Of a stretch of DNA of 64,000 nucleotides, positions 357-59,118 are shown one piece after another. Each line of letters opens with the position of its first letter. Position 1 is the stretch's first letter. Location of the stretch: positions 119,178 through 183,177 of the IMG/VR virus record IMGVR_UViG_3300020048_006428; one strand, written 5' to 3'. The position numbers and the translations under genes are program-made. This stretch comes from a virus. Its lineage: Duplodnaviria; Heunggongvirae; Uroviricota; Caudoviricetes. The notes under the pieces were generated by a model, which worked only from the letters and a program-made list of their open reading frames with translations, had not been told where the DNA came from and did not search any database.

Positions 357-941
357 ATGAAATACTTAAGATTATTTGAAAATTTTAATCAAACACAAAT
401 TGATTATTTATGTAAAAAATATAAAATTAAAAAATATAAAATTAATTCTGATGGATCAATTGATGTAGATGGTGATGTTTCTATAACTGGAAAAAATTTA
501 ACTAAATTACCACTTAAATTTAATAAAGTCATTGGTAATTTTACTTGTAATCATAATAAATTGACAACATTAGAAGGATGTCCAAATTATATCACTCTTG
601 ATTTTCATTGTATTAATAATAAATTAACATCATTAGAAGGATGTCCAGATTATATAGGTAGGGATTTTATTTTTCCTGGTAATAATGTAACAATTATAAA
701 AGATTATCCAAAAGAAGTTGTGGGCAGTCCTTATTACTCGGATAATCCAATAGAACCAATACTAAAATTATTTGAGGGAAATGTTAAGATATATTTAGAA
801 TATCAAGAAACATATAATTTTATTAGAACGGACAGTAAAATAGTTAAACATTTATTAGAAGAAGCTTTAAAAGATTATAATGAATATTATGGTGTTAAAA
901 AGGAATTACCAAAAGAAATAAAAGGATATACTTATATATGA
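357..941 (+). CDS. LRR-family protein, paralog 1 (3 x 21-aa repeats)
   Basis: MKYLRLFENF start, DGSIDVDGDV cap, FxCxxNxLTxLxGxP repeats, ELPKEIKGYTYI end. Confidence 0.85.
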   Translation: MKYLRLFENFNQTQIDYLCKKYKIKKYKINSDGSIDVDGDVSITGKNLTKLPLKFNKVIGNFTCNHNKLTTLEGCPNYITLDFHCINNKLTSLEGCPDYIGRDFIFPGNNVTIIKDYPKEVVGSPYYSDNPIEPILKLFEGNVKIYLEYQETYNFIRTDSKIVKHLLEEALKDYNEYYGVKKELPKEIKGYTYI

Positions 942-1585
942 AATACTTAAGATTATTTGAAAATTTTAATCAATCAGAAATTGACAAAATTTGTAGACAA
1001 TATAAAATAGAAAATTATACTATAAATCCAGATGGATCTATTGATGTAGATGGTGATGTTACACTTAATTGGAAAAGTTTAACAAAACTTCCACTTAAAT
1101 TCAATAAAGTTTCTGGTTATTTTTTGTGTACTTATAATAAATTAACAAGTTTAGATGGTTGCCCTAATTATGTAGGCAAGAGTTTTTTCTGTCAAAATAA
1201 TGAATTAACTAATTTAATTGGTGCTCCAATTTTTGTTGCTGATAATGTTGATTGTTCTAAGAATAATATAACTAATTTAATTGGTGCGCCAATTAAAGTT
1301 GGTAATACTTTTAATTGCTCATATAATGAATTAACAAGTTTAGATGGTTATCCTAAAGAAGTTGGATATATATTTAATTATTCAGGTAATCCAATAAAAC
1401 CAATAATAGATTTATTTTATTGCAATGTTAAAATTTATTTAGACTATCAAGAAACTTATAATTTTCTAAGAAAAGATTGTAAAATAGTTAAACATTTATT
1501 AATAGAAGCTTTAAAAGATTACAATGAATATTATAATCAATCAGTTGAATTACCAAAAGAAATAAAAGGATATACTTATATATGA
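938..1585 (+). CDS. LRR-family protein, paralog 2 (4 repeats)
   Basis: Same caps as paralog 1 and exactly 21 aa longer; ATGA overlap with paralog 1. Confidence 0.85.
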   Translation: MKYLRLFENFNQSEIDKICRQYKIENYTINPDGSIDVDGDVTLNWKSLTKLPLKFNKVSGYFLCTYNKLTSLDGCPNYVGKSFFCQNNELTNLIGAPIFVADNVDCSKNNITNLIGAPIKVGNTFNCSYNELTSLDGYPKEVGYIFNYSGNPIKPIIDLFYCNVKIYLDYQETYNFLRKDCKIVKHLLIEALKDYNEYYNQSVELPKEIKGYTYI

Positions 1586-2382
1586 AATACTTAAGATTAT
1601 TTGAACAATTTGAAATAGAAAAGGGTGATATTTTAAATCATCCATATCGTACACTAAATGATGTAACAGAAGATATAAAATATTTAGCACAAATATTTAG
1701 AAATCATTATATTGGTTCTTCATTTCGGGATAAAGAAGAAATTGAACTAAGACTTATCCAAAATTTAGAAAAAAGAAATTTTTCTCCATCAATAGCCAAT
1801 GCTTACCCATCATTCATAAAAATAGAAGAAATATTAAATAAAGAAATTGAATCTATTAGAAAAAAAGGTGGTTCAAGTGAATCCGAAACAAATGAATATT
1901 TAAAATTCTATAATGATTTTGCTGAACTCGTTCATATGGCACTTACGAAAAACATTAATGAAAATTATAGTATAAAGAATTATACATATAATGATTATAA
2001 ATATATTGTAAAATACAATGGTGATCATCTATACATAGAATTGCCTAATATTGGCTTTGTAGAGGGTTATAAGATGCCAATCGAACTTGATATTGCAGAA
2101 GATTTATCAAGTGATGAAATAGAAGAATTGGGTATAATTGATCCATATTTCACAATAAAACACATTGAAGTGTATGATAAAAGAAAAGGATATGGAAATG
2201 AACTTATGTCAGTTTTTTTAGACATAACAAATAAACTTGGATTAAATCAAATAATCTTAAATGCTTCTCCATTAGATAGAAATATAGATTTAGAAGGTTT
2301 AGTTGCCTTTTATGAAGATTGGGGATTTGAAGTTATAAAAAAATATAAAGATCATTCTATAATGATGCTAAATAGACTATGA
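1582..2382 (+). CDS. GNAT-family acetyltransferase with MKYLRLFE N-terminal tag
   Basis: C-terminal HIEVYDKRKGYGNELM (acetyl-CoA-binding motif A) and LVAFYEDWGFEV (motif B). Confidence 0.7.
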   Translation: MKYLRLFEQFEIEKGDILNHPYRTLNDVTEDIKYLAQIFRNHYIGSSFRDKEEIELRLIQNLEKRNFSPSIANAYPSFIKIEEILNKEIESIRKKGGSSESETNEYLKFYNDFAELVHMALTKNINENYSIKNYTYNDYKYIVKYNGDHLYIELPNIGFVEGYKMPIELDIAEDLSSDEIEELGIIDPYFTIKHIEVYDKRKGYGNELMSVFLDITNKLGLNQIILNASPLDRNIDLEGLVAFYEDWGFEVIKKYKDHSIMMLNRL

Positions 2383-4160
2383 AATATTTAATAAAATACA
2401 AAAACTATAAACTATTGGAATCGGTAATTGTTTCAAGTGATGATTTTAAGAGTATTATTACTAAATTACCAGACGAAAAAATATCAAATTATATTTATGA
2501 TATAATTAAATATGATACTGATGTTAATACAAAATATAACTATCTTAACTTATCAGATAAAAATGATGAAGTAGAATTTCTACCTGATAATCAATTCCAA
2601 AGATTCCTAAATGATGGTAGTTATGAAACAAGAAAAAGAAGTAACATAAATGTTGGTAGACTTGTATCACAAATTTTAAAGGATAATAATATAGACTTTA
2701 CTGAAACTGAATTGGTTACTTTTATAAATAATTTTAAAGCATTTCACAGTAAAATGAAAAATGTTGATATATCAATCGTTAAAGGAAATGATATATTGAA
2801 ATGGTATTTGATTGATAATTATATAGATTCAAATAATGGGACATTAAATAATTCTTGTATGGCAGATACAAAGAAAAATCATTTTATGAAAATCTATGCT
2901 GATAATCCAAATAAAATATCAATGGTTATAATTAAAGAAGATGATGGATTGGTTGCAAGAGCTTTATTATGGAAAATAGATGAATCTAATTACTATTTAG
3001 ATAGAATATATTATACAGATGGTTCACAACAAAGATTTATTCATAGTTGGGTATTAGAAAATATAGTAAATAATGGCAAAGATAAATTATTAAGTCATCT
3101 TGAATTTGATAATACACGTGGTGATATATCTATTCAATTAGACAAAATAAATTATGATTTTTATCCATATATGGATAGTTTTCCGTTTTTATATGAAAAA
3201 TTGGAAGATGGTGAACAAACAGGAAATGGATATGTTGCAAATTATAATCTATTAGATGATGGGAAGAATTATGATGATTATATGATATCCAGAATTCGAT
3301 CAAGTTCAACTGGTGAAAGAGAATGGTTAACCCATATATATTCAAAATTACTTGAAAAATGGTTTCCTAAAAATGAAGTTGTAGTAGTTATAACTAAAAA
3401 AGATAATAAACTTGATTATTTTGCAGTTCCTAAAAGTATGGCTTTTTATTCTAATTTAGAAGATTCTTATATACTCCAAACAGATGCTGTTTATTCAAAT
3501 ATATTATCTGACTATTTATCTGAATATAAATCTATATCACATCCAAAATATGGTGTTATACCAAAAGACAGTATTGTCAAAGCAAACACTAAATATATTG
3601 GGAAATATACTAACCCACTTGAAATATATAATGCACTTAAAAATGGTGAAGAGTTATATGAAATTGATGATGTTTTTGATCCGAATGGAAATGAAGTTAC
3701 TTTTGTATATGATACACCTAATAATGTGTTAGAATTATTTAAAAATGATTTACTTGTAGAAGATTATTTGGGGTATAAGAATATCGAAAAGATATGTGTT
3801 AAATTATTTAAAATAAATGGTGATTTGATGGAAACTTGTTTTGATAACAATTACATATTCTTTAAATATGGCGAAAAGTTGGGAAGATTTGAAAAAGATT
3901 TCTGGGCATACATTATGGAAGAAGATTGTATATTATTTAATAAAAATGAAATTGATTCAAATTACTACAAAACTGTTCCAATAGATTCTAGTCTAATAAT
4001 GGATAGACTTATTCATAATTTTGATATTAATAGTGTAATAGAATTTATAAATAATTCAAATATATCAGAATCTGAAAAACAAAAATTAATTGAAAGCAAA
4101 AATAAATATCATAATGAATTATTGAAAAACCAAGTTTATAAAAATAGAGTGAAAAAGTGA
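2379..4160 (+). CDS. Hypothetical 593-aa protein with N-terminal tag; possible PcfJ-like domain
   Basis: Long ORF; NSCM...YADNP...ARALLW...LDRIY core; three imperfect YSxxxxxY/W repeats. Confidence 0.55.
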   Translation: MKYLIKYKNYKLLESVIVSSDDFKSIITKLPDEKISNYIYDIIKYDTDVNTKYNYLNLSDKNDEVEFLPDNQFQRFLNDGSYETRKRSNINVGRLVSQILKDNNIDFTETELVTFINNFKAFHSKMKNVDISIVKGNDILKWYLIDNYIDSNNGTLNNSCMADTKKNHFMKIYADNPNKISMVIIKEDDGLVARALLWKIDESNYYLDRIYYTDGSQQRFIHSWVLENIVNNGKDKLLSHLEFDNTRGDISIQLDKINYDFYPYMDSFPFLYEKLEDGEQTGNGYVANYNLLDDGKNYDDYMISRIRSSSTGEREWLTHIYSKLLEKWFPKNEVVVVITKKDNKLDYFAVPKSMAFYSNLEDSYILQTDAVYSNILSDYLSEYKSISHPKYGVIPKDSIVKANTKYIGKYTNPLEIYNALKNGEELYEIDDVFDPNGNEVTFVYDTPNNVLELFKNDLLVEDYLGYKNIEKICVKLFKINGDLMETCFDNNYIFFKYGEKLGRFEKDFWAYIMEEDCILFNKNEIDSNYYKTVPIDSSLIMDRLIHNFDINSVIEFINNSNISESEKQKLIESKNKYHNELLKNQVYKNRVKK

Positions 4161-4170
4161 AAATAAAATA

Positions 4171-4202
4171 AAAACACATTATAATTTATAATGTGTTTTT
4201 TT
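4171..4202. terminator. Intrinsic terminator hairpin
   Basis: AAAACACATTATA-ATT-TATAATGTGTTTTT after the stop at 4160. Confidence 0.75.
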
Positions 4203-4254
4203 AATTAAACTAAAATAGATATATCATATATAATTAAAAAATAATTAATATAAA

Positions 4255-4980
4255 ATGACCATATCTTTAGAAAAGGTATTTTTTACATTTATTTTAAAAA
4301 ATAAAAGGCACTTCGGTATAGTAGAACCAATTTTTTTCAAAAATGCAGAAATACAATTAGTATATAATATACTTAGAAAATATATACTTAAAAATTCAGA
4401 AGCAGAAGTTCCACAACCAAGACAAATTCTTGAAATGGTGTCGCTTGAAGATAAAGAATCTTTAATTACAAAAGATATTCTAAAAGCAATGCTAACAGTT
4501 AATCTTAGTGAGTATGATGAAACTAATTTTATAATACCAAAATTTAATGCTTGGATATTATCTAATAGATTAAAAGCAGGCACTATTGATATAATAGATG
4601 AAACCAGAAATCTTGACACTAAAACAGACTTTGATTCAATATTAGAATCTGCTAATAAGATTAAAAATATTGTAGATCAAATGGCAAATATAAACTTTGC
4701 TGATGATGACGATCTTGGTGCAGATTTTGATGACCCAGAACAACACGCACAAGATTCTTCTAAATTTAAAATAAAATCAGGATTTGCTACTATTGATCAT
4801 ATGCTTGGTGGTGGTTGGGATATATCAACTTTAAACATTCTGATGGCTGAAACGTCCAACGGAAAATGTTTTTCAGGATTGATAAGGGTTTCAGAAGATT
4901 CTGAAAAAACAGAAACAATAAAAATAGAAGATTTTTTCAATAGAATTAAAAATATGTCTAAGGCGGTGAAAAAGAAATAA
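4255..4980 (+). CDS. dnaB: Replicative helicase (gp41/DnaB-like), N-terminal half, fused to the 37-aa N-part of a split intein
   Basis: SGFATIDHMLGGGW...LNILMAETSNGK is a Walker A that stops at Lys and is followed by intein Cys1 (TGT at 4867-4869), CFSGLIRV...KKK*. Confidence 0.85.
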   Translation: MTISLEKVFFTFILKNKRHFGIVEPIFFKNAEIQLVYNILRKYILKNSEAEVPQPRQILEMVSLEDKESLITKDILKAMLTVNLSEYDETNFIIPKFNAWILSNRLKAGTIDIIDETRNLDTKTDFDSILESANKIKNIVDQMANINFADDDDLGADFDDPEQHAQDSSKFKIKSGFATIDHMLGGGWDISTLNILMAETSNGKCFSGLIRVSEDSEKTETIKIEDFFNRIKNMSKAVKKK

Positions 4981-5002
4981 TATATAAAAATAAACAGCCA
5001 AT

Positions 5003-6448: not shown

Positions 6449-6449
6449 A

Positions 6450-7613
6450 ATGTTAGAATTAGAATATATTGAAGCGGATAGTTTATTTGATGGGGTTTAT
6501 GAAGCACCATTATATGATAAATTTATTGAGGCTTATAGGGTTAATAATATTAAGGTTGAGACACCTAATGGATTGGTAGATGTAGAAGGTGTTGGAAAAA
6601 CCATTGAATTTGAAGAATATAGGATATTTACATCAGGGGGTAAAGAATTGATATGTGCTGATAAGCATATATTATATCGTTGTGATAATATGGATTTCGT
6701 TACATTAAAATGTGATTTAAATGAGATTTATTGTGAATATTTACAATTAGGTGATTTCATTATGACTAAGGATGGACCAGAAATGGTAATGGAATATGGA
6801 TTAACAGGTAATAAATCACATATGTATGATTTACAATTATCAGAAGGTTCAAATAAGCAATATTACACAAATGATATATTGAGTCATAATTCTTTATGGA
6901 TGCAGAATTTCGCTGTAAAATCTGCTGATATGGGTTATAATGTATTATATATAACTTTGGAAATGAGTGAAAAGAAAGTTATGAAGAGATTGGGTTCTAT
7001 GCGTTTAAAGATACCAATAAATGAATATGATAATTTGAGTAAGGATGTAGACTATATAAAAGCAAAAATTGATACATTAAAAAATTCAAATTCAAATGAT
7101 TTATTTGAAAAGAAGATTGGTAAAATAATAGCTAAATTTTGGGCTGCTGGAACTGCAACTGTAAATGATTTTGATAATTACATACAGAAACTAAAAGATA
7201 AAAAAGGTATAAAAATAGATTTTGTTATAGTTGATTATATAACTTTGATAGCACCAATAAAAGGAATGGCGGGTGGTGATAATCTATATTCAAAAGGAAA
7301 AGCTTTAGCAGAGGGATTAAGAGCAATTGGTGCTAAATACAAGATTCCTGTATTAACTGCAATTCAAGTTGCAAGGGATGCTTGGAATTCAACCCAAATA
7401 ACTTTATCATCTATACCTGAAAGCAAAGCCATTGCCGAAACTGCGGATACATTTTGGGCTATAATAAGGACAGAAGATATGAAAAGACAGAATATATATA
7501 GATTTAAAATGCTAAAACAAAGAGATGGTGACTTTTCGAGTTCCCAGATAAAATTGAATTTAAATCCTTTATATCTAACATTAGAAAATGATATATTCAT
7601 TGACCAAGAATAA
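6450..7613 (+). CDS. dnaB: Split-intein C-part (147 aa) fused to the helicase C-terminal half
   Basis: Intein block B (LICADKHIL), block F (MYDLQL) and G (DILSHN, ending at 6890), then Ser+1; SLWMQN...YITLEMSE...VIVDYITL...TAIQV...ESKAIAETAD...KQRDG are DnaB-family motifs. Confidence 0.9.
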   Translation: MLELEYIEADSLFDGVYEAPLYDKFIEAYRVNNIKVETPNGLVDVEGVGKTIEFEEYRIFTSGGKELICADKHILYRCDNMDFVTLKCDLNEIYCEYLQLGDFIMTKDGPEMVMEYGLTGNKSHMYDLQLSEGSNKQYYTNDILSHNSLWMQNFAVKSADMGYNVLYITLEMSEKKVMKRLGSMRLKIPINEYDNLSKDVDYIKAKIDTLKNSNSNDLFEKKIGKIIAKFWAAGTATVNDFDNYIQKLKDKKGIKIDFVIVDYITLIAPIKGMAGGDNLYSKGKALAEGLRAIGAKYKIPVLTAIQVARDAWNSTQITLSSIPESKAIAETADTFWAIIRTEDMKRQNIYRFKMLKQRDGDFSSSQIKLNLNPLYLTLENDIFIDQE

Positions 7614-8920
7614 TAATTTATTTAGGATATCATCATCATATGATATCCTAAATAATAAAATATTATTATCTTCACAAAATTTATTTTTTATTGAATCTCT
7701 AAATATAGTTTTTTGGAATTCAACTTCACCACCAAATACATCAATTGGTTTGTAATGTTGAATTCCATCATATTCAATACAAATTTTATTATCATATAAA
7801 TAAAAATCAAAAGGTAGTTTTCTTATATTCTTACATTCATCAAATTTATATTGTGATTCAAAACTTATATTATTTGATATAAGAAATTCAGATATTATTT
7901 TTTCACCTTTTGAAAATCTGCATTTTGGACAACCTTGTTTACAGTGAAAATGTGAATATATTGACTGTTTAAAAAAACCATGTTTATTACAAATAATTCT
8001 CACTTTATTCTTTATTGTTTTAAAATCATTTTTTGTGTGTGAATAATCATAATTTATATTTATATTTTTTAATTCATTTATAGCACTATCTATATCAAAA
8101 TTTGAGCATTTATAACAACCCGAACCATTTAAATGTGATTTTGCATTTTGCCAAAAATCGCCATGTATAGGACAGTTTATTTTAAGTTTATTAGATGTTC
8201 CTTTATAAGTGGATTCATAATATGAATACTTATTTTTAAATATATTATTACATTTATTTAAAAATTCATTATAATTTAATTTAATTTTATCAAAATGACA
8301 TTTTTTACACCCACTTCTCAAATGATTTTTCACACTTTGCTTAAATATATTATGGGTTGGACATTTTATTTCAAGTATTGATTTTGTGTCTTCAATAGAA
8401 TCAATATTAATATATTCAAAAAAATTATTATATTTAATATTAATTTTTTCTATTATTTGCTTCTTTGATAATTTTTTCTTATCATCAGCGCACTTTTTAC
8501 ATGAAATTCCCGTGTATGCAAAATTTGATATATTAGATTTGAATTCACCATGAACTGGACAAATAACAACTATTTTTGATCTTGTGTGAAATTCTTCTAT
8601 TTTTGATAAGTCATAAAATCCATTATATTTATCATTTATCATTCCAATGACTTTTTCCTTTTGTATATTATTTCTTATTTCATCATTACAACATTTTAGA
8701 CCATATATAATAGAATTAGCAGGTGATGTTTTTATATCACCGTGTTTTAAACATTTAAAACACGTTTTGGTCTTATTATTTATATAAATGAAGTTACTAA
8801 AATCTACTATATTTCCCCATTTAGAAATAAAATTATTAATAAAAATTTCCTTGTTTTCCATATATTTTATATGAAAAACAACAGTTATGTTTAAACTTTA
8901 ACATTAGAAAATGATATATT
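7576..8920. repeat. 22-bp direct repeat flanking the endonuclease insertion (duplicated helicase 3' end)
   Basis: TAACATTAGAAAATGATATATT at 7576-7597 and 8899-8920. Confidence 0.85.
7581..8861 (-). mobile_element. Free-standing homing-endonuclease-like gene (repeated YDYS/CPxHG Zn modules + PD-(D/E)XK-like nuclease)
   Basis: Repeated CPxHG.F and GCxxC modules; C-terminal LPFDFYL...CIEYDGIQHY...LFRISY; antisense to and overlapping the helicase 3' end. Confidence 0.75.
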
Positions 8921-29675: not shown

Positions 29676-30098
29676 ATGGTTTTTATAGGACACATATTTT
29701 ATTTTATCGGACTACTTGTCTTTATTATGAATTTAAATAATTTATTAAATAGTAGAAAATTATCAAGCTTAATTGAATGGTCAATTTCATTCAATAAAGT
29801 AACTAAGAAAATAGTATCTAAAGATGATTTACCAGAAAATGATTTTAAATTAGTTCAAAACTATTCAAATTCAATGGTAATAACTTTTGCTTGGATGTTA
29901 TTAGGATTAATAACAAATAGTTGGTTGATATTTCTATCACTAATAAGTATTAATTTTTTGATGAGTTTCATTAGAAATAACACACCATTTAAATTTATAC
30001 AGTTTTTTATTATGTGTTTTATTAATGTATTAGTCATTGGATTCACATTCATAAATCATTTTCATTTACATATTGACGTATATAAATTTCTATTTTGA
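29676..30098 (+). CDS. Predicted membrane protein (3-4 hydrophobic segments)
   Basis: Hydrophobic stretches; TAAAC-N17-TATAAT promoter at 29629-29656. Confidence 0.6.
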   Translation: MVFIGHIFYFIGLLVFIMNLNNLLNSRKLSSLIEWSISFNKVTKKIVSKDDLPENDFKLVQNYSNSMVITFAWMLLGLITNSWLIFLSLISINFLMSFIRNNTPFKFIQFFIMCFINVLVIGFTFINHFHLHIDVYKFLF

Positions 30099-30488
30099 TT
30101 CATCTTTAATGTTAATAACAATATCTTCAATAGCTTTCATTGTTCCTTTTATTATATAATCATATAAGCTAAAACAATTTATTTCAGAAGGAACTTCATC
30201 ATAGAAATTTATTTTTGATAATAATGAATCAATATCATTTCTATAACTTAAATAGAATTCATATACATCTGAATCATTAATCAATCCTTCTATTTTACTT
30301 TTATCAGAATCTCTTATAAAAGCTTCAATAAAATCATTAAATACGTCTATATCATCGCTATTTAATGATTTTATTATTTTATCAATAATTTCATCTTTTA
30401 AATCTTTGTATTCTGGTTTTAATTTAGATGATATATCATCTTTTAAATCTTCATTTACAAAGCTTAAATATTTTTTTACATTTTTCAT
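30090..30488 (-). CDS. Hypothetical acidic protein with N-terminal tag (MKNVKKYLSFVNE)
   Basis: ATGA-coupled to the upstream LRR gene. Confidence 0.65.
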   Translation of the reverse strand: MKNVKKYLSFVNEDLKDDISSKLKPEYKDLKDEIIDKIIKSLNSDDIDVFNDFIEAFIRDSDKSKIEGLINDSDVYEFYLSYRNDIDSLLSKINFYDEVPSEINCFSLYDYIIKGTMKAIEDIVINIKDESK

Positions 30489-31072
30489 ATATAAGTATAT
30501 CCTTTTATTTCTTCTGGCAATTCTACCTGTTTATTATAATATTCATTATAATCTTTTAATGCTTCTTCCAATAAGTGTTTAACTATTTTAGAATCCTTTC
30601 TAAGAAAATTATATGTTTCCTGATAATCTAAATATATCTTAACATCTTCATTAAATAAATCTATTATTGGTTCTATTGGATTAGAAAAATATAAAAAATT
30701 TCTACCAACAACTTTTTTAGGACCACCATCTAAACTGGTTAATTTATTTCTAGAACAATAAAAATCCCCACCAACTTCTTTAGGACAACCTATTAAACTG
30801 GTTAATTCATTATAAGAACAAATAAAATTTCCACCAACCTCTTTAGGACAACCATCTAAACTAGTCAATTTATTCCAAGAACAATCAAAACTTCCATAAA
30901 CTTTATTAAATTTTAATGGTAATTCAGTTAAACTTCTATCGGATAACCAAACATTCCCATCAACATCAATAGACACATCAGGATTTATTGTATAGTTTCT
31001 AATATTATAGTGTTCACAAATATAATCAATTTCTGATTGATTAAAGTTTTCAAATAATTTCAAGTATTTCAT
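30485..31072 (-). CDS. LRR-family protein, paralog 3 (3 repeats)
   Basis: MKYLKLFENF...FDCSWNKLTSLDGCPKEVGGN...ELPEEIKGYTYI. Confidence 0.85.
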   Translation of the reverse strand: MKYLKLFENFNQSEIDYICEHYNIRNYTINPDVSIDVDGNVWLSDRSLTELPLKFNKVYGSFDCSWNKLTSLDGCPKEVGGNFICSYNELTSLIGCPKEVGGDFYCSRNKLTSLDGGPKKVVGRNFLYFSNPIEPIIDLFNEDVKIYLDYQETYNFLRKDSKIVKHLLEEALKDYNEYYNKQVELPEEIKGYTYI

Positions 31073-34000: not shown

Positions 34001-36683
34001 TAGAAGCTGAACTTGAAGTAATATTTGGTGCCAATGGAAGTATATCTGAAACACTAATTGATATTTCAGAACTGTTAATAGATGTTCCTGTTCTTGCTCC
34101 ACCTGTAGATGAAAAGGTGCTTGAAAATTCTATTTTATCTGAATCAGATATAGAAGAGTTATATGCAAATGTCTTTTCAGCATCTTTGTAGTAATTTAAC
34201 CAATTTTTTTCACCTGATATATTTTTTATTACAAATGAGCTTGTAAAACTACTTGAACTAAAAGTAACAGAATTAGCCAATCTATAATCGCCACCATCAG
34301 TAAAGAAATTCAATTTTGATGCAACATCATAATCCAAAAATAAAAATCTTGATTTTATACTATCATTAAAAGAAGGATCCAAATCATTGAAATCTAAATT
34401 TATATAATCATCCCTTTTTAATAATGAGTTATTACCACTTATATAAATATTATCATTAGTTAAATATAATTTATTTATATAAAAATCTTTTACTATTGAA
34501 CTTGTTCCACTTGATACATTAATTCCATTATTAATATTAATAATATTAGAAAAATCAACACTATATATTTTATCACCACCAATATATACACTGGAATCAG
34601 TTGGTCTTCTTGATATTGTTTTTATATCAGAGTGTGACTGCGTTGATGAAAAATAAATAAATGATTCATTTGAAATTATGTTATTAACATCATATGTTAT
34701 TATATTATCATTATTAGTTGATATTAGTAAAATTTTACCATTAATAGTTTTTACATCATAAGAATATGTAGTATAAATATAACTTGGTAATACAACACCA
34801 TTTGAATAGTTATAGAATAATTTAGCATTAATTGTATAAGTCGTATTCTTTAAATTACCCTTATCATCAATTGACAAAGATGTTGTAAACAAATCTTTAA
34901 ATACTTGTGTTCCTGGTGTAGTAATACCTATATATTTATAAAAATCATATGTTTGGAATGATAATGGAATTGGCGTATTATTAGAATATAATGGATTAGA
35001 ATAAACAATATTAGAATCTGAATCAATTATTTCTAAAGCAATAAAAAACTGTGATGTATTAAATACAGAATCACCATAATACTTACTATCAATATCTATT
35101 TCAATTCCATAACTATTATAAGAAGAATTGTTATAAACTAAATTATAAGCAAAATCATTAATTGCTTGATTCTTTGATGCAGTTGAACTTATTAAAACAG
35201 TCCAATCTGTTTTGGACATATCGTTTATATCTTCAACTAAAATATATTCATCAATAGAATCCAATTTCTTAGAAACTTTTCTTTTATAAGCAATCCAAGC
35301 TCCAGTTGAATAATTTAATTCTATAAAAACACCAGCTTCACCACCAATATAAGCTTTACTAAAGTCAATATGAGTTACTTTATTATATGAGTAAATATCA
35401 AAATTAGGATATTCTAATTTATTCCAACTATCACCACCATTATTTGTCCAATATATTGTGTTAAATTTACCAACAACAATACCATTTAAATTACCATAGA
35501 AAGAAATTGAAGTTAGATTACTTGTTTCATTCAATTCAATTCTTTTTATAGAAAAGTCATGCTTATTTATCCTTAATAATGTTCCTTCATCACCACATAC
35601 CCAATAATATTTTTCAACTTCATAAATTGATTTAATATTAACTTTATATTTATTACTTATAATAGTAGAATTACTATGTGTAGAAGATGATGATATTATA
35701 TCTTGATTATTTATTATAACACCAAATTCACCAACTGCTATTGTTCTACTTGGTATAGAATATGTTCTTGAATCCAATTCTATATAGACTGATTGTGTTG
35801 AATGGTTTATTATATCATAATAATTTATATCATAAATATTATTATAATCAACTCTATTTCTTAATATCCAATTATGCTTTTCTTCAAATTCAACATTTTG
35901 ACCTTCAGATATCAATGGATAATAACCATTATTCAATCTTTTTAAATGAAATTGCCTTTCTCTATTAACACCACCCATTTTAACACAAACTGAATATCTA
36001 TAAGCATCTTCATATAAATCCAAATCAGTTGTTATAACTAATTTATTATTTGTATATAAATAAACACCATTCTGATTATTATAAAAACTATAAACTTTAC
36101 TGGTTACATTATCACTGACTAAATCATAACTAGAAGTTAGCTCAAAATTTAAGAAATAATCATCAGGATCAACATTAGATGCTAATGTAACTTCTGATTT
36201 TTGATCTTTTATTAAAACTCTATGACCTTCTAATAATTTAATACCATCTATTGTTAGATTTGTATCTACTTGACCAATATTATTTAATTCTGATATAGAT
36301 GCAACATCAACATATAGATAATTATCTAATTGATCATCTATTAATTTATTTGGTGTAAATAAATTCTTTAATGTAAAGGCATTTTCCTTTAAATATTTAT
36401 TATAAAATTCATTTGAATTTGATGCATTCAATGGTAAGGCTGGACCATTTAGAGGTGCATTAATTGCACCACCACCAACTCTAACATAATAGCCTACTTT
36501 ATCAATATCTAAAACATCATATATATTATCCAAACTATTAATTGGTAAATATGTAGCACCACTAAGACATTTAGAATATAAACGAACTTTATCTAAATCT
36601 TGTTTTAAACTATCATAATAGTCCTTTCTAAGTGTATCTTTTTGATTAAACCATTTACCAGTATCAGAATTTCTTGTATACAT
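31098..36683 (-). CDS. Giant putative tail/baseplate protein (1861 aa) with BNR-like propeller segment and C-terminal G-x-W pentapeptide repeats
   Basis: IDGIKLLEGHRVLIKDQ fibre-type motif; VGKFNTIYWTNNGGDSW BNR-like; GTWYSGTWVGGDWYNGLWN repeats. Confidence 0.65.
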   Translation of the reverse strand: MYTRNSDTGKWFNQKDTLRKDYYDSLKQDLDKVRLYSKCLSGATYLPINSLDNIYDVLDIDKVGYYVRVGGGAINAPLNGPALPLNASNSNEFYNKYLKENAFTLKNLFTPNKLIDDQLDNYLYVDVASISELNNIGQVDTNLTIDGIKLLEGHRVLIKDQKSEVTLASNVDPDDYFLNFELTSSYDLVSDNVTSKVYSFYNNQNGVYLYTNNKLVITTDLDLYEDAYRYSVCVKMGGVNRERQFHLKRLNNGYYPLISEGQNVEFEEKHNWILRNRVDYNNIYDINYYDIINHSTQSVYIELDSRTYSIPSRTIAVGEFGVIINNQDIISSSSTHSNSTIISNKYKVNIKSIYEVEKYYWVCGDEGTLLRINKHDFSIKRIELNETSNLTSISFYGNLNGIVVGKFNTIYWTNNGGDSWNKLEYPNFDIYSYNKVTHIDFSKAYIGGEAGVFIELNYSTGAWIAYKRKVSKKLDSIDEYILVEDINDMSKTDWTVLISSTASKNQAINDFAYNLVYNNSSYNSYGIEIDIDSKYYGDSVFNTSQFFIALEIIDSDSNIVYSNPLYSNNTPIPLSFQTYDFYKYIGITTPGTQVFKDLFTTSLSIDDKGNLKNTTYTINAKLFYNYSNGVVLPSYIYTTYSYDVKTINGKILLISTNNDNIITYDVNNIISNESFIYFSSTQSHSDIKTISRRPTDSSVYIGGDKIYSVDFSNIININNGINVSSGTSSIVKDFYINKLYLTNDNIYISGNNSLLKRDDYINLDFNDLDPSFNDSIKSRFLFLDYDVASKLNFFTDGGDYRLANSVTFSSSSFTSSFVIKNISGEKNWLNYYKDAEKTFAYNSSISDSDKIEFSSTFSSTGGARTGTSINSSEISISVSDILPLAPNITSSSASKFIEDIPISMTFSTSYRALINKYLIIFKTNLPIDEGDVINLTSDVIDCNLVVNRIERYITNTFVSSLGIRQLFWPVVLGPGQVLSTYVYCYSDFNDNIIRNLKNSGFTINNLNKFSDIPNLLTNYEIHPISIGYDLELINGIVTVSQRFNNKTAYYNMQSTIEVGVISKDMVYEESFLNFGYSPTYNLLDYLGKINPVYFTSSTIFTILPEYYGLPGNGGNTFTQSNVYIDLSEGAQVGTYSWYRSGTNKVIFGSNYKFQWDSLLLNTFIDLNMTSTTYGQVTNERMLITKKYYDSSIDGYVMEFHKKIEVSSGIPVNSFDVNSFAFLSRNRLSQISSDLQLLNNIQRTSITKSIQLLNTFTSLENELSSKYPTDSYFKVLASDYNIRQFISGIIYTDNNYQIAMNILNLDEEKTYKILSTSQQTINGFTNKLKIDIDGTHDLIEGDLIYVEFNGGTNSSQTLNPQYFGLQTVIYALSSPGNSFVVTSNDFGVNSLIQDFGKISFLKKDAFFNYQPIDIIDYGIDKKVTRSVEILPENYDLDGSKYNLINLDLKRYRFQFVDGLSLEEVGNLYPWLLEAEISNAIIGKDINGLVWYSGTWKCGRWFGGTWYSGTWVGGDWYNGLWNSYNTIYKVIGVKIDTSFIDNTVSKWFGGRWFDGIWNGGTWYDGRRYDGDWNTGNWYNGIWNDGNWKTGNFYGGVWVLGNWESGILNCDSKPSYWLDGTFKSGDFENGIWYNGQFGNDKGLLSRFGTKSTNSRTSTWNGGKWINGEFHSYMNIDSSTGIPIVSDIHKYSIWKTGIWLKGNFYGGIAYNIDFRSGVWHGGILEEIQIIGVDAILPASQSTNSITINGIFKFNIGDEIWVIDDYTGGAFSYLGNNENPMKYRINEILELEDSTKLYLNYNLSSLGVPASIATASYSDVETGLRIVSYFKDSNWKSGLWTNGIFEGGQYDSGIWYNGVFNGNWGN

Positions 36684-51932: not shown

Positions 51933-51981
51933 AATATAAATATTTTATTTTTATTTATAAAATATTACTACTTACATCAAC

Positions 51982-52766: not shown

Positions 52767-52812
52767 ATATTTTTTTCTTTTATATATTAAAAATTAAAAA
52801 TCAAAAATAAAT

Positions 52813-52844: not shown

Positions 52845-52875
52845 ATATTCATTAATAAAACATAAACTTAACAAT

Positions 52876-53337: not shown

Positions 53338-53338
53338 T

Positions 53339-53377
53339 AAAAAAGACAACCTAATTTTTTAGGTTGTCTTTTTTTTT
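53339..53377. terminator. Bidirectional terminator (identical core to 24856-24893, opposite orientation)
   Basis: A6-GACAACCT-AATTTTTT-AGGTTGTC-T9. Confidence 0.85.
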
Positions 53378-53378
53378 A

Positions 53379-54602
53379 TTATCCAAATAAATCTTCTGCA
53401 CTAATATCATCCGAATATCCATTTTCATCTAAATCACTTTCAATAACATCAACGAATTGCTTTTCAACTTCTTCAATTTCATCTAATGATTTAAATCTAA
53501 AATAATCATTTACAATTGGTGCCATTCTTTGTAACACATCTTGTGTAAATACTTCAGGTGTGAATAGATTTTTGAAAAATACAGATTTATCCAAATGTCT
53601 AACATACCATTTAAGACCACCTGGTTTAAATACCATTTCACCAGTTGCTTTATCTACTTCTTCTTTACCTTGTGCAATACCAATTTGCTTGAAATATTCA
53701 GGTCTACAAAAAGCATCCAATCCAGTATATGGATTCATACCTGATACAAAAGATATTTCAAATTTTATTTGCTTAGGTTTAGCCATACGATTTTTTATTG
53801 CTTTAAATGTAACAACAATACCAGATTGCCCCAAATCCATTTCATCCTCCTGTCCAGTCTTTAGCTTTGCCTTGGAAACCATCCCGATTATTGATGATGA
53901 ATAAACCAATGCTTTACCTCCTTTTAATATTTGCTGTGGATACATATTACCTTGTTCTAAATAAACATGGTTACAAACGACCATTGGTATTCCCAAATAC
54001 CCTAAATCAGTGTTTATGGATCTAAATAAAGCTGCTAATGCTTTAGCTCTAGTCATATCAACTTTTAGATTACCCGAAATTAAATCTTCCTTTTCTTTAT
54101 TTGAACTCATTTGTCCAACAGAATCTAATACAATTAAGAATGGTTCAATGGATCCATTTTCCATCTTTTCTTGCTTAAGTGAATCCAATAATTGAGTTAA
54201 TAACAAATTTATATCTTCAACCTTATTACCTCTTATCAATTTGAATTTTTCTGGATTGTTATCTATACCATATTTTGGCATATCATCTAAATTTAAACTA
54301 TATTCTGTATCTATATAAATAACACCATATCCATCCTTTTGCGCATTTTTAGCAACTGATAGAGCAACATAAGTCTTGCCTGTACCTGAATCACCTGCAA
54401 CACAAAATATTTTCCCCATTTCAATACCACCATCCATCATTCTTGCACTTAAGGCAGCATTTAATAAATAAACTCCTGTACTAATAAACCTTCTTTCTTG
54501 TATTTCCTTTTCTATAATAACTGGAACTTTTTTTGATATATTATCTAATAAATCACCAACTTTAGAAAAACTAAAACTTTTCTTTTCTATTTTCTTTGCC
54601 AT
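53379..54602 (-). CDS. recA: RecA/UvsX recombinase
   Basis: ISTGVYLLNAAL, AGDSGTGKT, YIDTE, VLDSV, DMTRAKAL, VCNHVY, GGKALVYSS, KNRMAKP. Confidence 0.92.
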   Translation of the reverse strand: MAKKIEKKSFSFSKVGDLLDNISKKVPVIIEKEIQERRFISTGVYLLNAALSARMMDGGIEMGKIFCVAGDSGTGKTYVALSVAKNAQKDGYGVIYIDTEYSLNLDDMPKYGIDNNPEKFKLIRGNKVEDINLLLTQLLDSLKQEKMENGSIEPFLIVLDSVGQMSSNKEKEDLISGNLKVDMTRAKALAALFRSINTDLGYLGIPMVVCNHVYLEQGNMYPQQILKGGKALVYSSSIIGMVSKAKLKTGQEDEMDLGQSGIVVTFKAIKNRMAKPKQIKFEISFVSGMNPYTGLDAFCRPEYFKQIGIAQGKEEVDKATGEMVFKPGGLKWYVRHLDKSVFFKNLFTPEVFTQDVLQRMAPIVNDYFRFKSLDEIEEVEKQFVDVIESDLDENGYSDDISAEDLFG

Positions 54603-54627
54603 TTTTCTTTCGCTTTTTTTTATATAG

Positions 54628-54734
54628 TATATATAAAAAATTCCACACCCCCCTTTCGATATTTTTAGACTTATTTAATTATTTATTTTATTTTCAAATA
54701 AATACTGAAGGGGGGTATAAGTTTTTTATATATA
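54628..54734. promoter_or_regulatory. Mirror-image divergent promoter pair containing G6 boxes
   Basis: AAGGGGGGT-N5/6-TTTTTTATATATA on both strands (54655-54628 toward recA; 54708-54734 toward the endonuclease). Confidence 0.55.
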
Positions 54735-54738
54735 ATTT

Positions 54739-56367
54739 ATGAACAGTTACGAATTTTTAAAAAAAGCACAAGAAGTACATGGACATAAATATTTATACCC
54801 ATTGTTACCAAATAAGATAACACACAAAGATAAAATTGATGTATTATATAATGATGTTTTATATACACAATCAGTTTGTAAACATCTTATGGGTAGATGC
54901 CCAGAAAAAAATATACCAATTAAAACACATGAACAATTCATTAATGAATGTAAGGAAATATGGGGGGATAAATATGACTATTCTTTAGTTGAATATATTG
55001 GTTCACTAAAACCAATTAAGATAATATATAATGGTGTAATTTTTGAACAAATAGCATCATCACATATAAATGGACTTAAACCCGAACTTAATATGAATAG
55101 GGATTGGTTCATAAAACGTTCTAAAGATAAATGGGGTGATAAATATGATTATTCTTTAGTTGAATACACAAATTGTAAAGCTAAAGTTAAAATAATTTAT
55201 AAAAAAACAGGTGAAATTTATGAGCAAACACCAGAAGGACATTTAAAAAACGCACCAGAAAATATACACCTTTCTATTAGAAGAACAACGGAAAAATTCA
55301 TAGAAGAATCAATTAAAATACATAAAGATAAATATGATTATTCATTAGTAAATTATATTACAAATAGTACTAAAGTAAATATAATATGTAAAAAACACGG
55401 TATATTTTCACAAGTCCCACAATCACATTTAATAGGAAATGGGTGTAAAAAATGTGGCTTTGAAAACAGTTCAAGGGAACATAAACCAAAATATACAACA
55501 GCAGAATTCATAAATGAAGCTAAAATTATATGGGGTGATAAATATGATTATTCTTTAGTTGACTATAAAAATTGTAAAACTAAAATAAAAATAATATTTG
55601 ATGGTATAATATATGAACAAACCCCAATATCACATTTTAAATATCCACCAGAAAGATTTCTAAATCAAGAAATCTTTCTAATAAAAGCTAAAAGGAAATG
55701 GGGTGATAAATATGATTATTCTTTGACTAATTTTATAGATTCACGAAAAACTATAAAAATAAAGTTTAACAACGAAATATATGAACAACTACCATGTAAT
55801 CATTTAAATTATGCACCTGAACTAAGAAACACCAAATCACAAGATGAATTTATAAATGAGTCAAAGAAAATACATAATTATAAATATAATTATGATGATG
55901 TAATTTATTCAAATATATCAACACAAGTTACTATAAGTTGCCCAAAACATGGAAAATTTAAACAGAAACCTTGTATTCATTTAAAGGGAAGTGGTTGTAA
56001 AAAATGTTCAGAATCTTTTGGTGAAAAAGCAATATCAAATTTTTTAGATATTAAAAACATTTCATATATTAGAGAACATAAATTTGATGATTGTAGATAC
56101 ATTCAATTACTTAAATTTGATTTCTATATACCATCCTTTAGAACTTGCATTGAATTTGATGGTATTCAACATTTTACACCTATTGAATATTTCGGTGGTA
56201 TAAAAGCATACGAATCGCTTGTAATTAGAGATAAAATAAAAGAACAATATTGCGAAGACAATTATATCAATCTAATAAGAATAAAATATGATAAGATTGA
56301 CAATATTGAAGAAATATTAAAAGAAAATTTAAAAGTCCTTTTAGAATTAAAAAACACCAATTATTAA
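54739..56367 (+). mobile_element. Free-standing homing-endonuclease-like gene (about 7 WGDKYDYSxVxY repeats + PD-(D/E)XK-like nuclease)
   Basis: Repeated F.......WGDKYDYSLVEY modules; C-terminal LKFDFYIP...CIEFDGIQHF...YCEDNYINLIRIKY, paralogous to 7581-8861. Confidence 0.75.
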
Positions 56368-56379
56368 TTGGTGTTTTTT
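56349..56379. terminator. Bidirectional terminator
   Basis: AAAAAACACCAATT-ATT-AATTGGTGTTTTTT between the convergent endonuclease and LRR genes. Confidence 0.8.
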
Positions 56380-56382
56380 AAA

Positions 56383-57090
56383 TTATATATAAGTATATCC
56401 TTCTATTTCTTCTGGTAATTCTACCTGTTTATTATAATATTCGTTATAATCTTTTAATGCTTCTTCTAAAAGGTATTTAACTATTTTACAATCTTTTCTT
56501 AAAAAATTAAATGTTTCTTGATAGTCTAAAAAAAGTTTATATTCATAATCCCCATGGAAAAACAATCCAGCTAAATTATCCAATGGTGTTTCATAACAAG
56601 ATATATCAGAATCAGTTGGAAGTCCTTCTAATGTTGATATCATATTATCATCAAATCTTACCATTTCAGCATTTGGACAGCCAACCAAAGATGTTAATTT
56701 GTTACCAGAACAAATAAATCGTTTTACGGTAGTTGGTAAATATTCCAATTTTTCCAAAAAATTACCAGAACAATTATACACACCATTAACTACTTTAGGA
56801 CCACCTTTTAAAGTAGTTAATCCATAGTTATTCATACAATAAAAACCTTCACCTACATAATTAGGAGATCCTTCTAAAGTTTTTAATTGATTATAGTTGC
56901 AATAAAAACTACCTGTTACTTTATTAAATTTTAATGGTAGTTCTTTTAATTTTTTACTATATAAAGAAACATTACCATCAACATCAATAGACCCATCAGG
57001 ATTTATTGTATAGTTTTGTATGTTATACACTTTACAAATTTCATCAATTTCTGACGTATCAAAGTTTTCAAATAATTTTAAGTATTTCAT
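56383..57090 (-). CDS. LRR-family protein, paralog 4 (about 5 more divergent repeats)
   Basis: Shared caps MKYLKLFENF / ELPEEIEGYTYI. Confidence 0.85.
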   Translation of the reverse strand: MKYLKLFENFDTSEIDEICKVYNIQNYTINPDGSIDVDGNVSLYSKKLKELPLKFNKVTGSFYCNYNQLKTLEGSPNYVGEGFYCMNNYGLTTLKGGPKVVNGVYNCSGNFLEKLEYLPTTVKRFICSGNKLTSLVGCPNAEMVRFDDNMISTLEGLPTDSDISCYETPLDNLAGLFFHGDYEYKLFLDYQETFNFLRKDCKIVKYLLEEALKDYNEYYNKQVELPEEIEGYTYI

Positions 57091-57641
57091 ATTTCAAAAT
57101 AAATATCTAATATTTCTAATGTTTTAGAATCATCTTTATTATATTGGATTTTATTATCACCCAATAATATTTTACCACCACTAATTAAATCAATTAGTGG
57201 TTCTTCTCTATTAAATAATTCCATTTCATCATTATTTATAATTATTTGAGTATCATAAATAACTTTACTTTCACCAATTCGAATTGATGCAGCATGTGAA
57301 GTTCCACCAATATTATTGGTCCTTGGTATTCTATTATTATTTTTGGAAGGTATTTTAATATTTAATTCTTTACCAATTGCTTCTGGATTATTAATAAAAT
57401 ATTTAGTAGCTTTTTCCTTAGCTTCATCAAAAATACCATCAAAATCATTTGATTCTTCATCAGGCATATTCATTTTGGCTATTTTAAATACTAAATCATA
57501 ATTACCATCATCTACTAAAGAATCAACATATTCTTTAGCACCTTTATTTATAATTGGATTGTATTTTGGGACAAAGTCAATTGACGATGAATCTCTATTT
57601 GAATCATCAATGAATGATTCGTATTTTTTTAAGTATTTCAT
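57087..57641 (-). CDS. Non-LRR hypothetical protein with N-terminal tag (MKYLKKYES), inside the LRR array
   Basis: ATGA-coupled on both sides. Confidence 0.7.
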   Translation of the reverse strand: MKYLKKYESFIDDSNRDSSSIDFVPKYNPIINKGAKEYVDSLVDDGNYDLVFKIAKMNMPDEESNDFDGIFDEAKEKATKYFINNPEAIGKELNIKIPSKNNNRIPRTNNIGGTSHAASIRIGESKVIYDTQIIINNDEMELFNREEPLIDLISGGKILLGDNKIQYNKDDSKTLEILDIYFEI

Positions 57642-58477
57642 ATATAAGTATATCCTTCTATTTTTTCAGGTAATTCTACCTGATTATTATAATATTCATT
57701 GTAATCTCTTATAGCTTCTTCTAATAAGTGTTTAACAATTTTAAAATCCTTTCTTATAAAATTATATGTTTCTTGATATTCTAAACAAATTTTAGCAACA
57801 TAACCAAATATACTTATAATAGAATCTATTGGATTATCATCATAATAGCTATCACCTTGAATTCTATTAGGGGCACCTTCTAATGATGTTATTTTATTAG
57901 ACTTACAATTTAACATCCCATTAATTTCATTTGGACAACCTATTAAATTTACCAATTGATTATTATAACAATAAAAATCACCTTCAACATAATTAGGACA
58001 ACCTATTAAACTTGTTAATTGATTATGTGAACAATCAAAAAACTCACCACCAACTTCTCTTGGACAACCTATCAAACTTGTTAATTTATTATCACGACAA
58101 TCAAAAGAATCAGCAACTTCTTTAGGACAACCATCTAAATTGGTTAATTGATTCCTTGCGCAATCAAAATAACCACCAACATAATTAGGACATCCTTCTA
58201 GATTAGTCAATTTATTCCAAGAACAAACAAAATCACGACCAACATAATTAGGACAACCTATTAAACTTACTAATTTGTTACTAGAACAAATAAAATTTCC
58301 AGAAACCCTATTAAATTTAAGTGGTAGTTTTGTTAAATTTATATATTTAAATTTCACATCACCATCCACATCAATAGATCCATCTGGATTAATTGTATAA
58401 TTTGTTATACCATATTCATTACAAATTTCATCAATTTCTGATGAATCAAAGTTTTCAAATAGTTTTATGTATTTCAT
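57638..58477 (-). CDS. LRR-family protein, paralog 5 (7 repeats)
   Basis: 279 aa = 194 + 4 x 21 + 1; shared caps. Confidence 0.88.
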   Translation of the reverse strand: MKYIKLFENFDSSEIDEICNEYGITNYTINPDGSIDVDGDVKFKYINLTKLPLKFNRVSGNFICSSNKLVSLIGCPNYVGRDFVCSWNKLTNLEGCPNYVGGYFDCARNQLTNLDGCPKEVADSFDCRDNKLTSLIGCPREVGGEFFDCSHNQLTSLIGCPNYVEGDFYCYNNQLVNLIGCPNEINGMLNCKSNKITSLEGAPNRIQGDSYYDDNPIDSIISIFGYVAKICLEYQETYNFIRKDFKIVKHLLEEAIRDYNEYYNNQVELPEKIEGYTYI

Positions 58478-59118
58478 ATATAAGTATATCCTTCTATTTT
58501 TTCAGGTAATTCTACCTGCTTTTTATAATATTCATTAAAATCTTTTAATGCTTCTTCTAATAAGTGTCTAACTATTTTACAATCCTTTCTTAAAAAATTA
58601 TATGTTTCTTGATATTCTAAATAATATTTAACTTCAAAATCAAATAAATCTGTAATTTTTGATATTGGATTACCACAATCATTAAAAAACCCATCAACTT
58701 TAGGACAACCTTCTAATGTAGTTAATTTATTATCAGCACAATGAAAACCACAAATAACTTCTTTTGGGCAACCATCTAAACTGGTTAATTTATTATCAGA
58801 ACAATCAAAATAACCACCAACTTCTTTTGGACCACCAATTAAATTGGTTAATTCATTATCAGAACAATTAAAATTATCACCTACATAATTAGGCGAACCT
58901 TCTAAAGTAGTTAATTTATTATCACCACAATCAAAACTCCCATAAACTTTATTAAATTTAAGTGGTAATTTAGTTAATTCATCACCCAATAAATCAACAT
59001 CTTCATCCACATCAATTGAACCATCTGAATTTATAGTATAATAATATATATCATATTCTTTACAAATAGCATCAATTTCCGATGAATTAAAGTTTTCAAA
59101 TAATTTTAAGTATTTCAT
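58474..59118 (-). CDS. LRR-family protein, paralog 6 (4 repeats)
   Basis: Shared caps; TTTAATATATA at 59157-59147. Confidence 0.88.
   Translation of the reverse strand: MKYLKLFENFNSSEIDAICKEYDIYYYTINSDGSIDVDEDVDLLGDELTKLPLKFNKVYGSFDCGDNKLTTLEGSPNYVGDNFNCSDNELTNLIGGPKEVGGYFDCSDNKLTSLDGCPKEVICGFHCADNKLTTLEGCPKVDGFFNDCGNPISKITDLFDFEVKYYLEYQETYNFLRKDCKIVRHLLEEALKDFNEYYKKQVELPEKIEGYTYI

Follow-up and report, generated by a model that had tools for sequence, protein, structure and literature searches.

A recombining family of tagged leucine-rich repeat proteins in a large uncultured phage, carrying a leader that may act as a T4-like capsid-targeting propeptide

We have studied a family of leucine-rich repeat (LRR) proteins encoded in a 64,000-nucleotide stretch of DNA (hereafter the window) that occupies positions 119178-183177 of the IMG/VR virus record IMGVR_UViG_3300020048_006428, from a member of the Caudoviricetes. 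The record is 276.4 kb in size, with a completeness of 47% by CheckV and a G+C content of 25%, and the public runs that contain its sequence are aquatic metagenomes, marine and freshwater, all of them DNA runs. The phage probably infects a member of the Flavobacteriales. Our reading, to which we assign a probability of about 0.6, is that the proteins belong to a phage-lineage-specific multigene family of small, soluble, acidic and cysteine-rich LRR binders that recombine with each other, a T4-like role in targeting to the capsid being the most likely single function of their common N-terminal tag, at somewhat less than even odds. Each protein has fixed caps, the C-terminal one helical, and between them several cysteine-ladder units of 21 residues. 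Two sets of results are new here. The first is clean orthologous evidence for insertion and deletion (indel) of whole units, for a conversion tract with a named donor and for cassette replacement; the second is a measurement of peptide constraint on the tag, its position-by-position match to the T4 capsid-targeting sequence (CTS), and an apparent fusion of prohead protease and scaffold with repeated (L/I)-x-E motifs.

An earlier note on this DNA, made from the letters alone, had described six such paralogues in the window, and all six open reading frames (ORFs) exist exactly as described (Table 1). They align from end to end with 55-66% identity and 84 invariant columns, a similarity that is far beyond chance. 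The shared start MKY(L/I)(K/R)LFENF and the shared end GYTYI are present in all six, and between the caps lie 3, 4, 3, about 5, 7 and 4 units of FxCxxNxLTxLxGxPxxVxxx, with the protein lengths stepping by about 21 aa as had been reported. The cap motifs given in that note are approximate; forms such as YLDYQETYNF, LLIEA and DFNEYY also occur. Six is also too low a count for the whole record. When searched with a profile built on these paralogues, the record gives 20 matching stretches, with E-values down to 2e-119, and the genome-wide count is at least 16 members, comprising 13 full-length copies, 2 short ones and 1 truncated where the contig stops. Each of the 13 is an intact ORF that has both caps. 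The LRR proteins have no signal peptide and no membrane segment. Their isoelectric points (pI) are mostly acidic, at 4.4-5.9 with one at 8.1, and their cysteine content is 2.2-5.4%, compared with a genome mean of 1.2%.

The short members lie at record positions 190924-191304 and 207391-207828. They start M-T-I-(K/E)-E-I-C and are untagged, and at their ends the motif NPLPQE(V/I)(I/L)DNP...(K/S)RLNREKK replaces the C-cap.

Do the proteins form LRR solenoids, as was proposed? The 279-aa member was modelled with AlphaFold2 (AF2) using an alignment of 55 sequences, giving a mean predicted local distance difference test score (pLDDT) of 94 and a predicted template-modelling score (pTM) of 0.87. The modelled N-terminus is disordered, with residues 1-6 below a pLDDT of 50. 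It is followed by an N-cap comprising a helix and a hairpin, a regular solenoid in which every repeat has a short strand at unit positions 1-2 and a second short ladder runs along positions 17-18, and a C-cap that is a small alpha/beta structure. A profile search against the sequences of the PDB gave InlJ (3bz5) as the best match at 6e-28, followed by SspH2 (3e-16) and IpaH proteins, and the top Foldseek matches were the LRR domains of IpaH3, SspH1 and IpaH7.8 (TM score 0.5-0.64, E 2e-5 to 1e-3, probability 1.00). The solenoid is thus borne out by model, profile and structure search alike. There is nothing unusual in the fold itself, whose nearest solved relatives are InlJ and the IpaH/SspH LRR domains. 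Fold searches of AFDB and Atlas yielded no relatives other than unnamed or loosely named ones.

Scans of the six members against Pfam, PHROGs and NCBIfam placed them in no named family. The sole NCBIfam match was InlJ, far below threshold at 53 bits against a cut-off of 1700, and the sub-threshold Pfam matches were LRR_4 in four of the six members and LRRNT in two. The LRR region of the 279-aa member is matched by phrog_21719 and phrog_7816 (E 1.6e-12 and 6e-9); these profiles, of 554 and 739 positions, have no known function and cover only the repeats. A sub-threshold Pfam match of the C-cap to 'Plasmid_parti' recurred, and was not trusted.

To which class of LRR does the unit belong? The published class scheme includes the IRREKO subtypes and a 'Bacterial' class (PMC2946307). 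We compared 616 units taken from 120 homologues. The segment that defines the LRR superfamily is present as (x)FxCxxNxL, with N6 conserved at 100%, F1 at 97%, C3 at 96% and L8 at 98%. The cysteine ladder of the IRREKO/InlJ type, i.e., a 21-residue unit with Cys at position 6 of the conserved segment, is also present. The nested variable segment of that type, LxxLDLxx(N/L/x)xx, is not found; here the segment reads L-T-x-L-x-G-x-P-x-x-V, with G13 at 94% and P15 at 96%. The unit is a hybrid, having the length and cysteine of the second IRREKO subtype but a proline-bearing LTxLxGxP closer to the 'Bacterial' class.

Two further features of the unit were observed throughout the family, for example in the gene at 57638-58477. 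Positions 16-17 come in two flavours, CPNYVG and CPKEVG (N in 24 and K in 19, Y in 18 and E in 17 of 54 units). Of the same 54 units, 30 have Cys at position 14, which could form a second cysteine ladder on the convex side.

The likeness to InlJ of Listeria extends to the 21-residue unit and to the replacement of the second core leucine by cysteine (LxxLxCxxNxL). However, the InlJ class has LxxLDLxx where the phage unit has LTxLxGxPxxV (PMC2946307), and the phage proteins lack the signal peptide, LPXTG anchor and inter-repeat Ig-like region. Their caps are unlike those of InlJ, and they are phage-encoded, intracellular and 170-370 aa in length. The injected bacterial effectors IpaH, SspH1/2, SlrP and YopM share with the phage family the best structural matches, units of 20-22 residues, a proline in the variable segment, and the property of being small soluble solenoids delivered (here possibly) into another cell to bind its proteins. 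They differ in their NEL E3-ligase domain and type III secretion signal, both of which are lacking in the phage family, whereas the phage LRR core has a Cys ladder and other caps. The last 70 aa fold into a small helical cap that matches nothing in Pfam or NCBIfam, and no NEL ligase was found there.

The variation was said to concentrate at the positions that surround FxCxxN. In the 616 units the entropy at positions 21, 2, 4 and 5 is 3.36, 3.19, 3.29 and 3.38 bits; positions 17 and 16 follow with 2.95 and 2.76 bits, and it falls to 0-0.5 bits at F1, C3, N6, L8, L11, G13 and P15. When F1 and C3 are equated with L4 and L6 of LxxLxLxxN, the four most variable positions correspond to LRR x3, x5, x7 and x8. 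By the established geometry of LRRs, residues at these positions face the solvent, on the concave strand and at its exit. The claim therefore stands for deep divergence (3.2-3.4 bits against 2.95 or less). Recent change is flatter. Among seven pairs of near-orthologues with 86-97% identity, residues had changed at 15.2% of concave positions, 11.1% of other x positions and 1.8% of scaffold positions, compared with 14.3% in LRR0, 10.0% in the N-cap, 6.1% in the C-terminal part and 5.7% in the tag.

Evidence that the genes are diversified by recombination came from syntenic loci in other metagenomes, 94-98% identical in DNA. In locus L031 the 215-aa gene is shortened to 194 aa by an exact loss of 63 nt, the remainder being 100% identical, and the missing segment is flanked on both sides by the same 19-nt stretch, which recurs from one unit to the next. 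A gene of the 279-aa type in L028 is shortened to 258 aa, again by exactly 63 nt, with an 8-nt microhomology. Comparing the 279-aa gene of the window with that of L027, 15 of 53 mismatches fall within 58 nt, and the best donor match to this L027 patch is unit 2 of the paralogue at 30485-31072, with 95% identity over 61 nt. That match marks the patch as a gene-conversion tract. In the same locus the fourth gene of the cluster (235 aa, 56383..57090) is replaced by a different paralogue of 190 aa. The gene at 57087-57641 has no non-synonymous changes against L027, with 100% aa identity, and the LRR genes on its flanks differ. The 194-aa gene (357..941) has orthologues in L029, L030 and L031 that are 99-100% identical. 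Evidently the gene sets of related phages are not the same: unit indels, conversion and cassette replacement are all seen between them, as the earlier note had anticipated in proposing a recombination-diversified set.

The substitutions are patchy and donor-matched, and are not adenine-specific. A diversity-generating retroelement was considered and rejected; there is no RVT_1 match in the 276-kb record, which represents about 47% of the genome. Across 56300-59200, the Logan contigs from four metagenome runs were shattered at the repeats, with cross-mapping between paralogues, and their joints are uninterpretable.

The family diversifies by three routes. Unequal recombination or slippage between units gives the 63-nt indels, gene conversion exchanges segments between paralogues, and whole genes are replaced at the conserved stop/start junctions. 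With the exposed residues changing and the scaffold held, the outcome would be an inherited and fast-changing set of binders, which most likely bind host proteins.

The layout had been compared with that of the agnathan variable lymphocyte receptors (VLRs). The analogy holds for the arrangement of N-cap, variable number of LRR modules and C-cap, and for concave diversity arising by recombination between LRR segments. It does not extend to mechanism. A VLR gene is incomplete in the germline and is finished in somatic cells with cassettes that flank it, whereas the phage copies are all complete and inherited, with no sign of somatic assembly; the differences in the phage LRR genes occur between genomes and not within a locus. 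The disulfide-knotted LRRNT and LRRCT of the VLRs also contrast with the helical phage caps, and the phage proteins have neither stalk nor membrane anchor.

The family is widespread. Among the candidates scored from a collection of 5.8 billion proteins there are at least 1760 homologues at E ≤ 0.001, all named 'hypothetical'; they are metagenomic, almost all viral, and come from many habitats. In the best 120 the repeat counts are 1-9, and a recognisable tag is present in 82. A related 183-kb contig has 48 matching stretches, corresponding to roughly 25 genes. The Atlas neighbours of the C-cap are 82-100% viral and unnamed, and the genomes of 185,579 prokaryote species gave one weak match only, on a 5.9-kb contig of a Flavobacteriales metagenome-assembled genome. 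We conclude that the family defined by these caps is essentially viral. With at least 1760 homologues, and between 16 and at least 25 copies per genome, it is among the largest unnamed protein families of big uncultured phages. Full-text searches on the tag letters and on LRR proteins of huge or jumbo phages found no description of it, one 2021 survey of LRRs in dsDNA viruses lying outside their coverage.

One protein of the LRR type is encoded by a cultured phage. CDS0008 of the 196-kb Vibrio phage VB_VaC_SRILMA (PP083314.1; L026:2950-3585) has 211 aa and eight nearly identical 21-aa units (F.CSNNNLTSLEGAPQSVQGN), without tag and caps. It could be an experimental entry point for the LRR type.

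The tag is not confined to the LRR proteins. We scanned the record with a position matrix built from strict tags, taking as threshold the 99.9th percentile of internal 10-mers, and found the tag on 48 of 348 ORFs (about 14%). In 55 family sequences E8 never varies, and there is little variation at L6 (conserved in at least 90%), F7 and F10. Among the 120 homologues, 111 have a hydrophobic-x-E motif within the first 16 residues, compared with 35% of internal windows, and 81 have E at position 8. Is this a conserved peptide or a conserved piece of nucleic acid? For 12 paralogues the tag codons have a proportion of synonymous differences (pS) of 0.44, the same as in the rest of the gene, together with a proportion of non-synonymous differences (pN) of 0.037 and hence pN/pS = 0.08. 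The constraint on the tag therefore acts on the peptide, and not on a DNA or RNA element. Most of the tagged proteins are acidic, with a median pI of 4.9. The 23 tagged non-LRR proteins that were scanned gave no Pfam match above a curated cut-off, and the tag is absent from all recognisable enzymes and head proteins of the record. The pattern indicates that the tag is a separate and portable linear peptide signal, common to about 14% of the phage genes.

A second family of tagged paralogues was also seen, at record positions 34337-34831, 35601-36134 and 56071-56595, with the form MK(Y/H)LKLFENF...IIKIA(D/N)LINGLDLDLAIIL. It stands either side of the LRR gene at record 34837.

A head module of the T4 type lies about 30 kb upstream of the window and encodes a portal, a prohead protease and a gp23-like capsid protein. 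The protease ORF (record 88884-91040; L025:6085-8241) is 718 aa in length, with a gp21-type Peptidase_S77 domain (PF03420, 29.3 bits against a cut-off of 27; phrog_207 at 2.6e-31) at residues 1-222. After this domain come 13 tandem 14-aa repeats of NI(S/A)YSEY(L/I)AE(S/T/N)(V/L)DK, every one with a cleavage motif of T4 type in its Y(L/I)AE, and then a strongly acidic tract. The ORF has 30 (L/I)xE motifs, 2.6 times the median density, and from this composition the extension looks like a scaffold that a protease of T4-like specificity would reduce to short peptides.

For packaging in T4 a CTS of the first ten residues is enough, positions 4 and 7 directing targeting and 8 and 10 processing, and gp21 cleaves after L/I-x-E (PMC9026906). 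The internal proteins of T-even phages are a diverse anti-restriction or defence-countering set with the CTS alone in common (PMC3012670). In the T4 record IPIII and IPII begin MKTYQEFIAE, and IPI begins MKTFKEF. The tag agrees with these in M1, K2, a hydrophobic residue at position 4, F7 and an L-x-E site. In both cases a leader of about ten residues stands on otherwise unrelated small proteins, a gp21-type protease is encoded, and the loci are hypervariable between close relatives (cf. PMC3012670). Three features of T4-type capsid-targeted proteins are found here: a shared short leader, (L/I)-x-E at its end, and a gp21-type protease, with a putative scaffold, in the same phage. There are also differences. 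The putative cut falls after residue 8 rather than 10, there are about 48 tagged genes rather than 3, and the mature parts of the T4 internal proteins have no sequence similarity to the LRR proteins.

The likeness of the tag to the T4 CTS, together with the presence of a T4-type protease, makes delivery in the capsid plausible. The tag would dock the protein into the scaffolding core, and would be cut after Glu8 (L-F-E) by the T4-type prohead protease of the phage; ejection of the DNA would then carry the mature LRR protein along. By this analogy a T4-like capsid-targeting propeptide is the most likely single role of the tag, although we would put it at somewhat less than even odds. A fuller scheme goes further. 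It supposes a T4-like propeptide working at genomic scale, on about one seventh of the genes including at least 16 recombining LRR binders, whose products would be loaded via the protease-scaffold fusion, trimmed after Glu8 and ejected as a strain-variable library that neutralises host defence before phage expression. Taken as a whole we find this scheme rather doubtful. Heads with at least 50 protein species are documented for giant phages (PMC7411985, PMC10052503). An anti-defence role for the LRR proteins is suggested by the same analogy.

Innate and adaptive immune receptors use LRR solenoids as their binding scaffold, and so do injected bacterial effectors. If the targets of the phage proteins are host defence or takeover proteins, the family would provide a ready catalogue of natural binders and possible anti-defence factors. 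The tag offers a concrete test of whether the T4 capsid-targeting principle works at larger scale in huge phages, and if the capsid route is true then dozens of uncharacterised proteins would be identified as injected.

Several observations weigh against our reading, some concerning selection and others the tag. On the concave face, recent substitutions show no more than a mild enrichment. Moreover, the whole-gene ratio of non-synonymous to synonymous rates (dN/dS) in near-orthologous LRR genes is 0.36-0.56, compared with 0 in a non-LRR neighbour. These values are below 1, and therefore positive selection is not demonstrated; what the data show is that exposed residues change fast on a fixed scaffold. 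Comparison of unit with unit gives pN/pS of about 1.0-1.5 at the x positions, but with synonymous sites near saturation (pS 0.43) this ratio cannot separate diversifying selection from relaxed constraint. Could this then be a selfishly expanding family of repeat genes under relaxed constraint, with no specific role in binding? A dN/dS that is elevated although below 1, a unit-level pN/pS near 1 at the x positions, and the drift of copy and repeat number between strains would be expected of such a family. Yet all 13 full-length copies are intact, the scaffold is near-invariant over 616 units, the caps are conserved across the homologues from many habitats, and recent substitutions avoid the scaffold (1.8% against 11-15%). 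We consider this explanation very improbable.

Concerning the tag, about five of its ten positions carry the likeness to the T4 CTS. A complex prediction of protease residues 1-240 with residues 1-62 of the tag and N-cap scored 0.00, which says nothing for or against binding. No protease was found in the LRR-rich 183-kb contig G001, a contig that is possibly incomplete and in which head genes were not sought. The tagged set, at 14% of all genes, is far larger than any known CTS set, and two members of the LRR family lack both tag and C-cap. These last two points also fit an alternative, in which the LRR proteins are cytoplasmic effectors made after infection and never packaged. The tag would then be another peptide signal, acting in timing via a protease or chaperone, in location within the infected cell or in binding a common phage partner, or it would be inherited with the cassette junction. 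The tagged operons have ATGA overlaps, and within the cluster a 65-nt junction is 97% identical. The first 33 nt of the unrelated 266-aa gene at 1582 are common to two LRR genes at 91-100%, pointing to DNA exchange at the junctions, and acidic tagged proteins are not obviously suited to packed DNA. However, the tag has diverged at synonymous sites genome-wide while the peptide was held (pS 0.44 against pN 0.037), and therefore hitch-hiking on a DNA junction fails as an explanation of its conservation. The invariant Glu8 after Leu6 fits the site of a T4-type protease, and such a protease is encoded in the record. We judge a purely cytoplasmic role rather unlikely.

A third possibility is that the LRR proteins are receptor binders on the virion surface or associated with fibres, the caps docking to the particle and the variable solenoids binding the host surface. 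The LRR solenoids of internalins bind surface ligands, and virion proteins of the chimallivirus Goslar with an N-terminal docking module followed by an LRR or beta-helix have been proposed as host-recognition elements (bioRxiv 10.64898/2026.04.21.720040). One LRR member lies directly behind a structural-looking gene of 1861 aa, and the motif TAATATATA precedes LRR genes as well as the portal and giant genes. But this motif is not specific to structural genes, and searches of Pfam, PHROGs and NCBIfam found no known virion-docking domain. The LRR genes do not lie in the tail module but are dispersed, with small accessory genes around them, and the tag is common to dozens of unrelated small proteins. 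A surface role would also need from 16 to at least 25 different small monomeric adaptors per virion. We regard it as improbable.

The motif TAATATATA occurs 13-37 nt upstream of 84 gene starts of mixed kinds in the whole record, those of LRR genes, the portal and giant ORFs among them; examples in the window lie upstream of 357, 31072, 59118, 29573 and 40972. On both strands there are 128 occurrences, compared with about 81 expected from base composition by our own arithmetic. As a marker of late promoters it was rejected: the genes are of mixed kinds and the count is not far above the expectation, and so the motif carries no information on timing. It is promoter-like, without class specificity.

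Table 1. Positions of the LRR genes, their tags and associated features in the window
Feature	Position	Strand	Remarks
LRR paralogue, 194 aa	357..941	+	Tag, N-cap, 3 units (third degenerate), C-cap
LRR paralogue, 215 aa	938..1585	+	4 units; start overlaps preceding stop (ATGA)
LRR paralogue, 195 aa	30485..31072	-	3 units; directly downstream of 1861-aa gene
LRR paralogue, 235 aa	56383..57090	-	About 5 irregular units
LRR paralogue, 279 aa	57638..58477	-	7 units; protein chosen for structure model
LRR paralogue, 214 aa	58474..59118	-	4 units; first gene of four-gene operon; orthologue P0001 92% identical
10-codon tag MKYLRLFENF	357..386	+	
Same tag	938-967	+	
Same tag	31043-31072	-	
Same tag	57061-57090	-	
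Same tag	58448-58477	-	
Same tag	59089-59118	-	
Unrelated 266-aa gene	1582..2382	+	Same tag; translationally coupled to LRR pair
Unrelated 593-aa gene	2379..4160	+	Tag variant MKYLIKYKNYKLLES
Unrelated 184-aa tagged gene	57087..57641	-	Inside LRR cluster
132-aa gene	30090..30488	-	Weak tag variant MKNVKKYLSF; coupled to LRR gene at 30485
65-nt junction	903..967	+	LRR 3' end, stop/start overlap, next tag; repeated at 1547-1611, 97% identity

The tagged 266-aa protein has, by eye, a GNAT-like C-terminal motif, RKGYGNELM...AFYEDWGFE, with no Pfam match at E ≤ 0.001. The other ORFs of the window include a DnaB-like helicase, a ribonucleotide reductase, an SbcC-like nuclease, a RecA/UvsX-like protein, an RNA ligase and several giant ORFs. 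The match to the DnaB-like helicase spans only residues 148-374 of a 387-aa ORF (6450-7613; compare 4255-4980). A 542-aa protein encoded at 54739-56367 (+) contains about six repeats of a module of about 60 aa with WGDKYDYSLVEY, and a 426-aa protein on the other strand, at 7581-8861 (-), has a match to DUF723. Both look like homing-endonuclease-associated repeat proteins.

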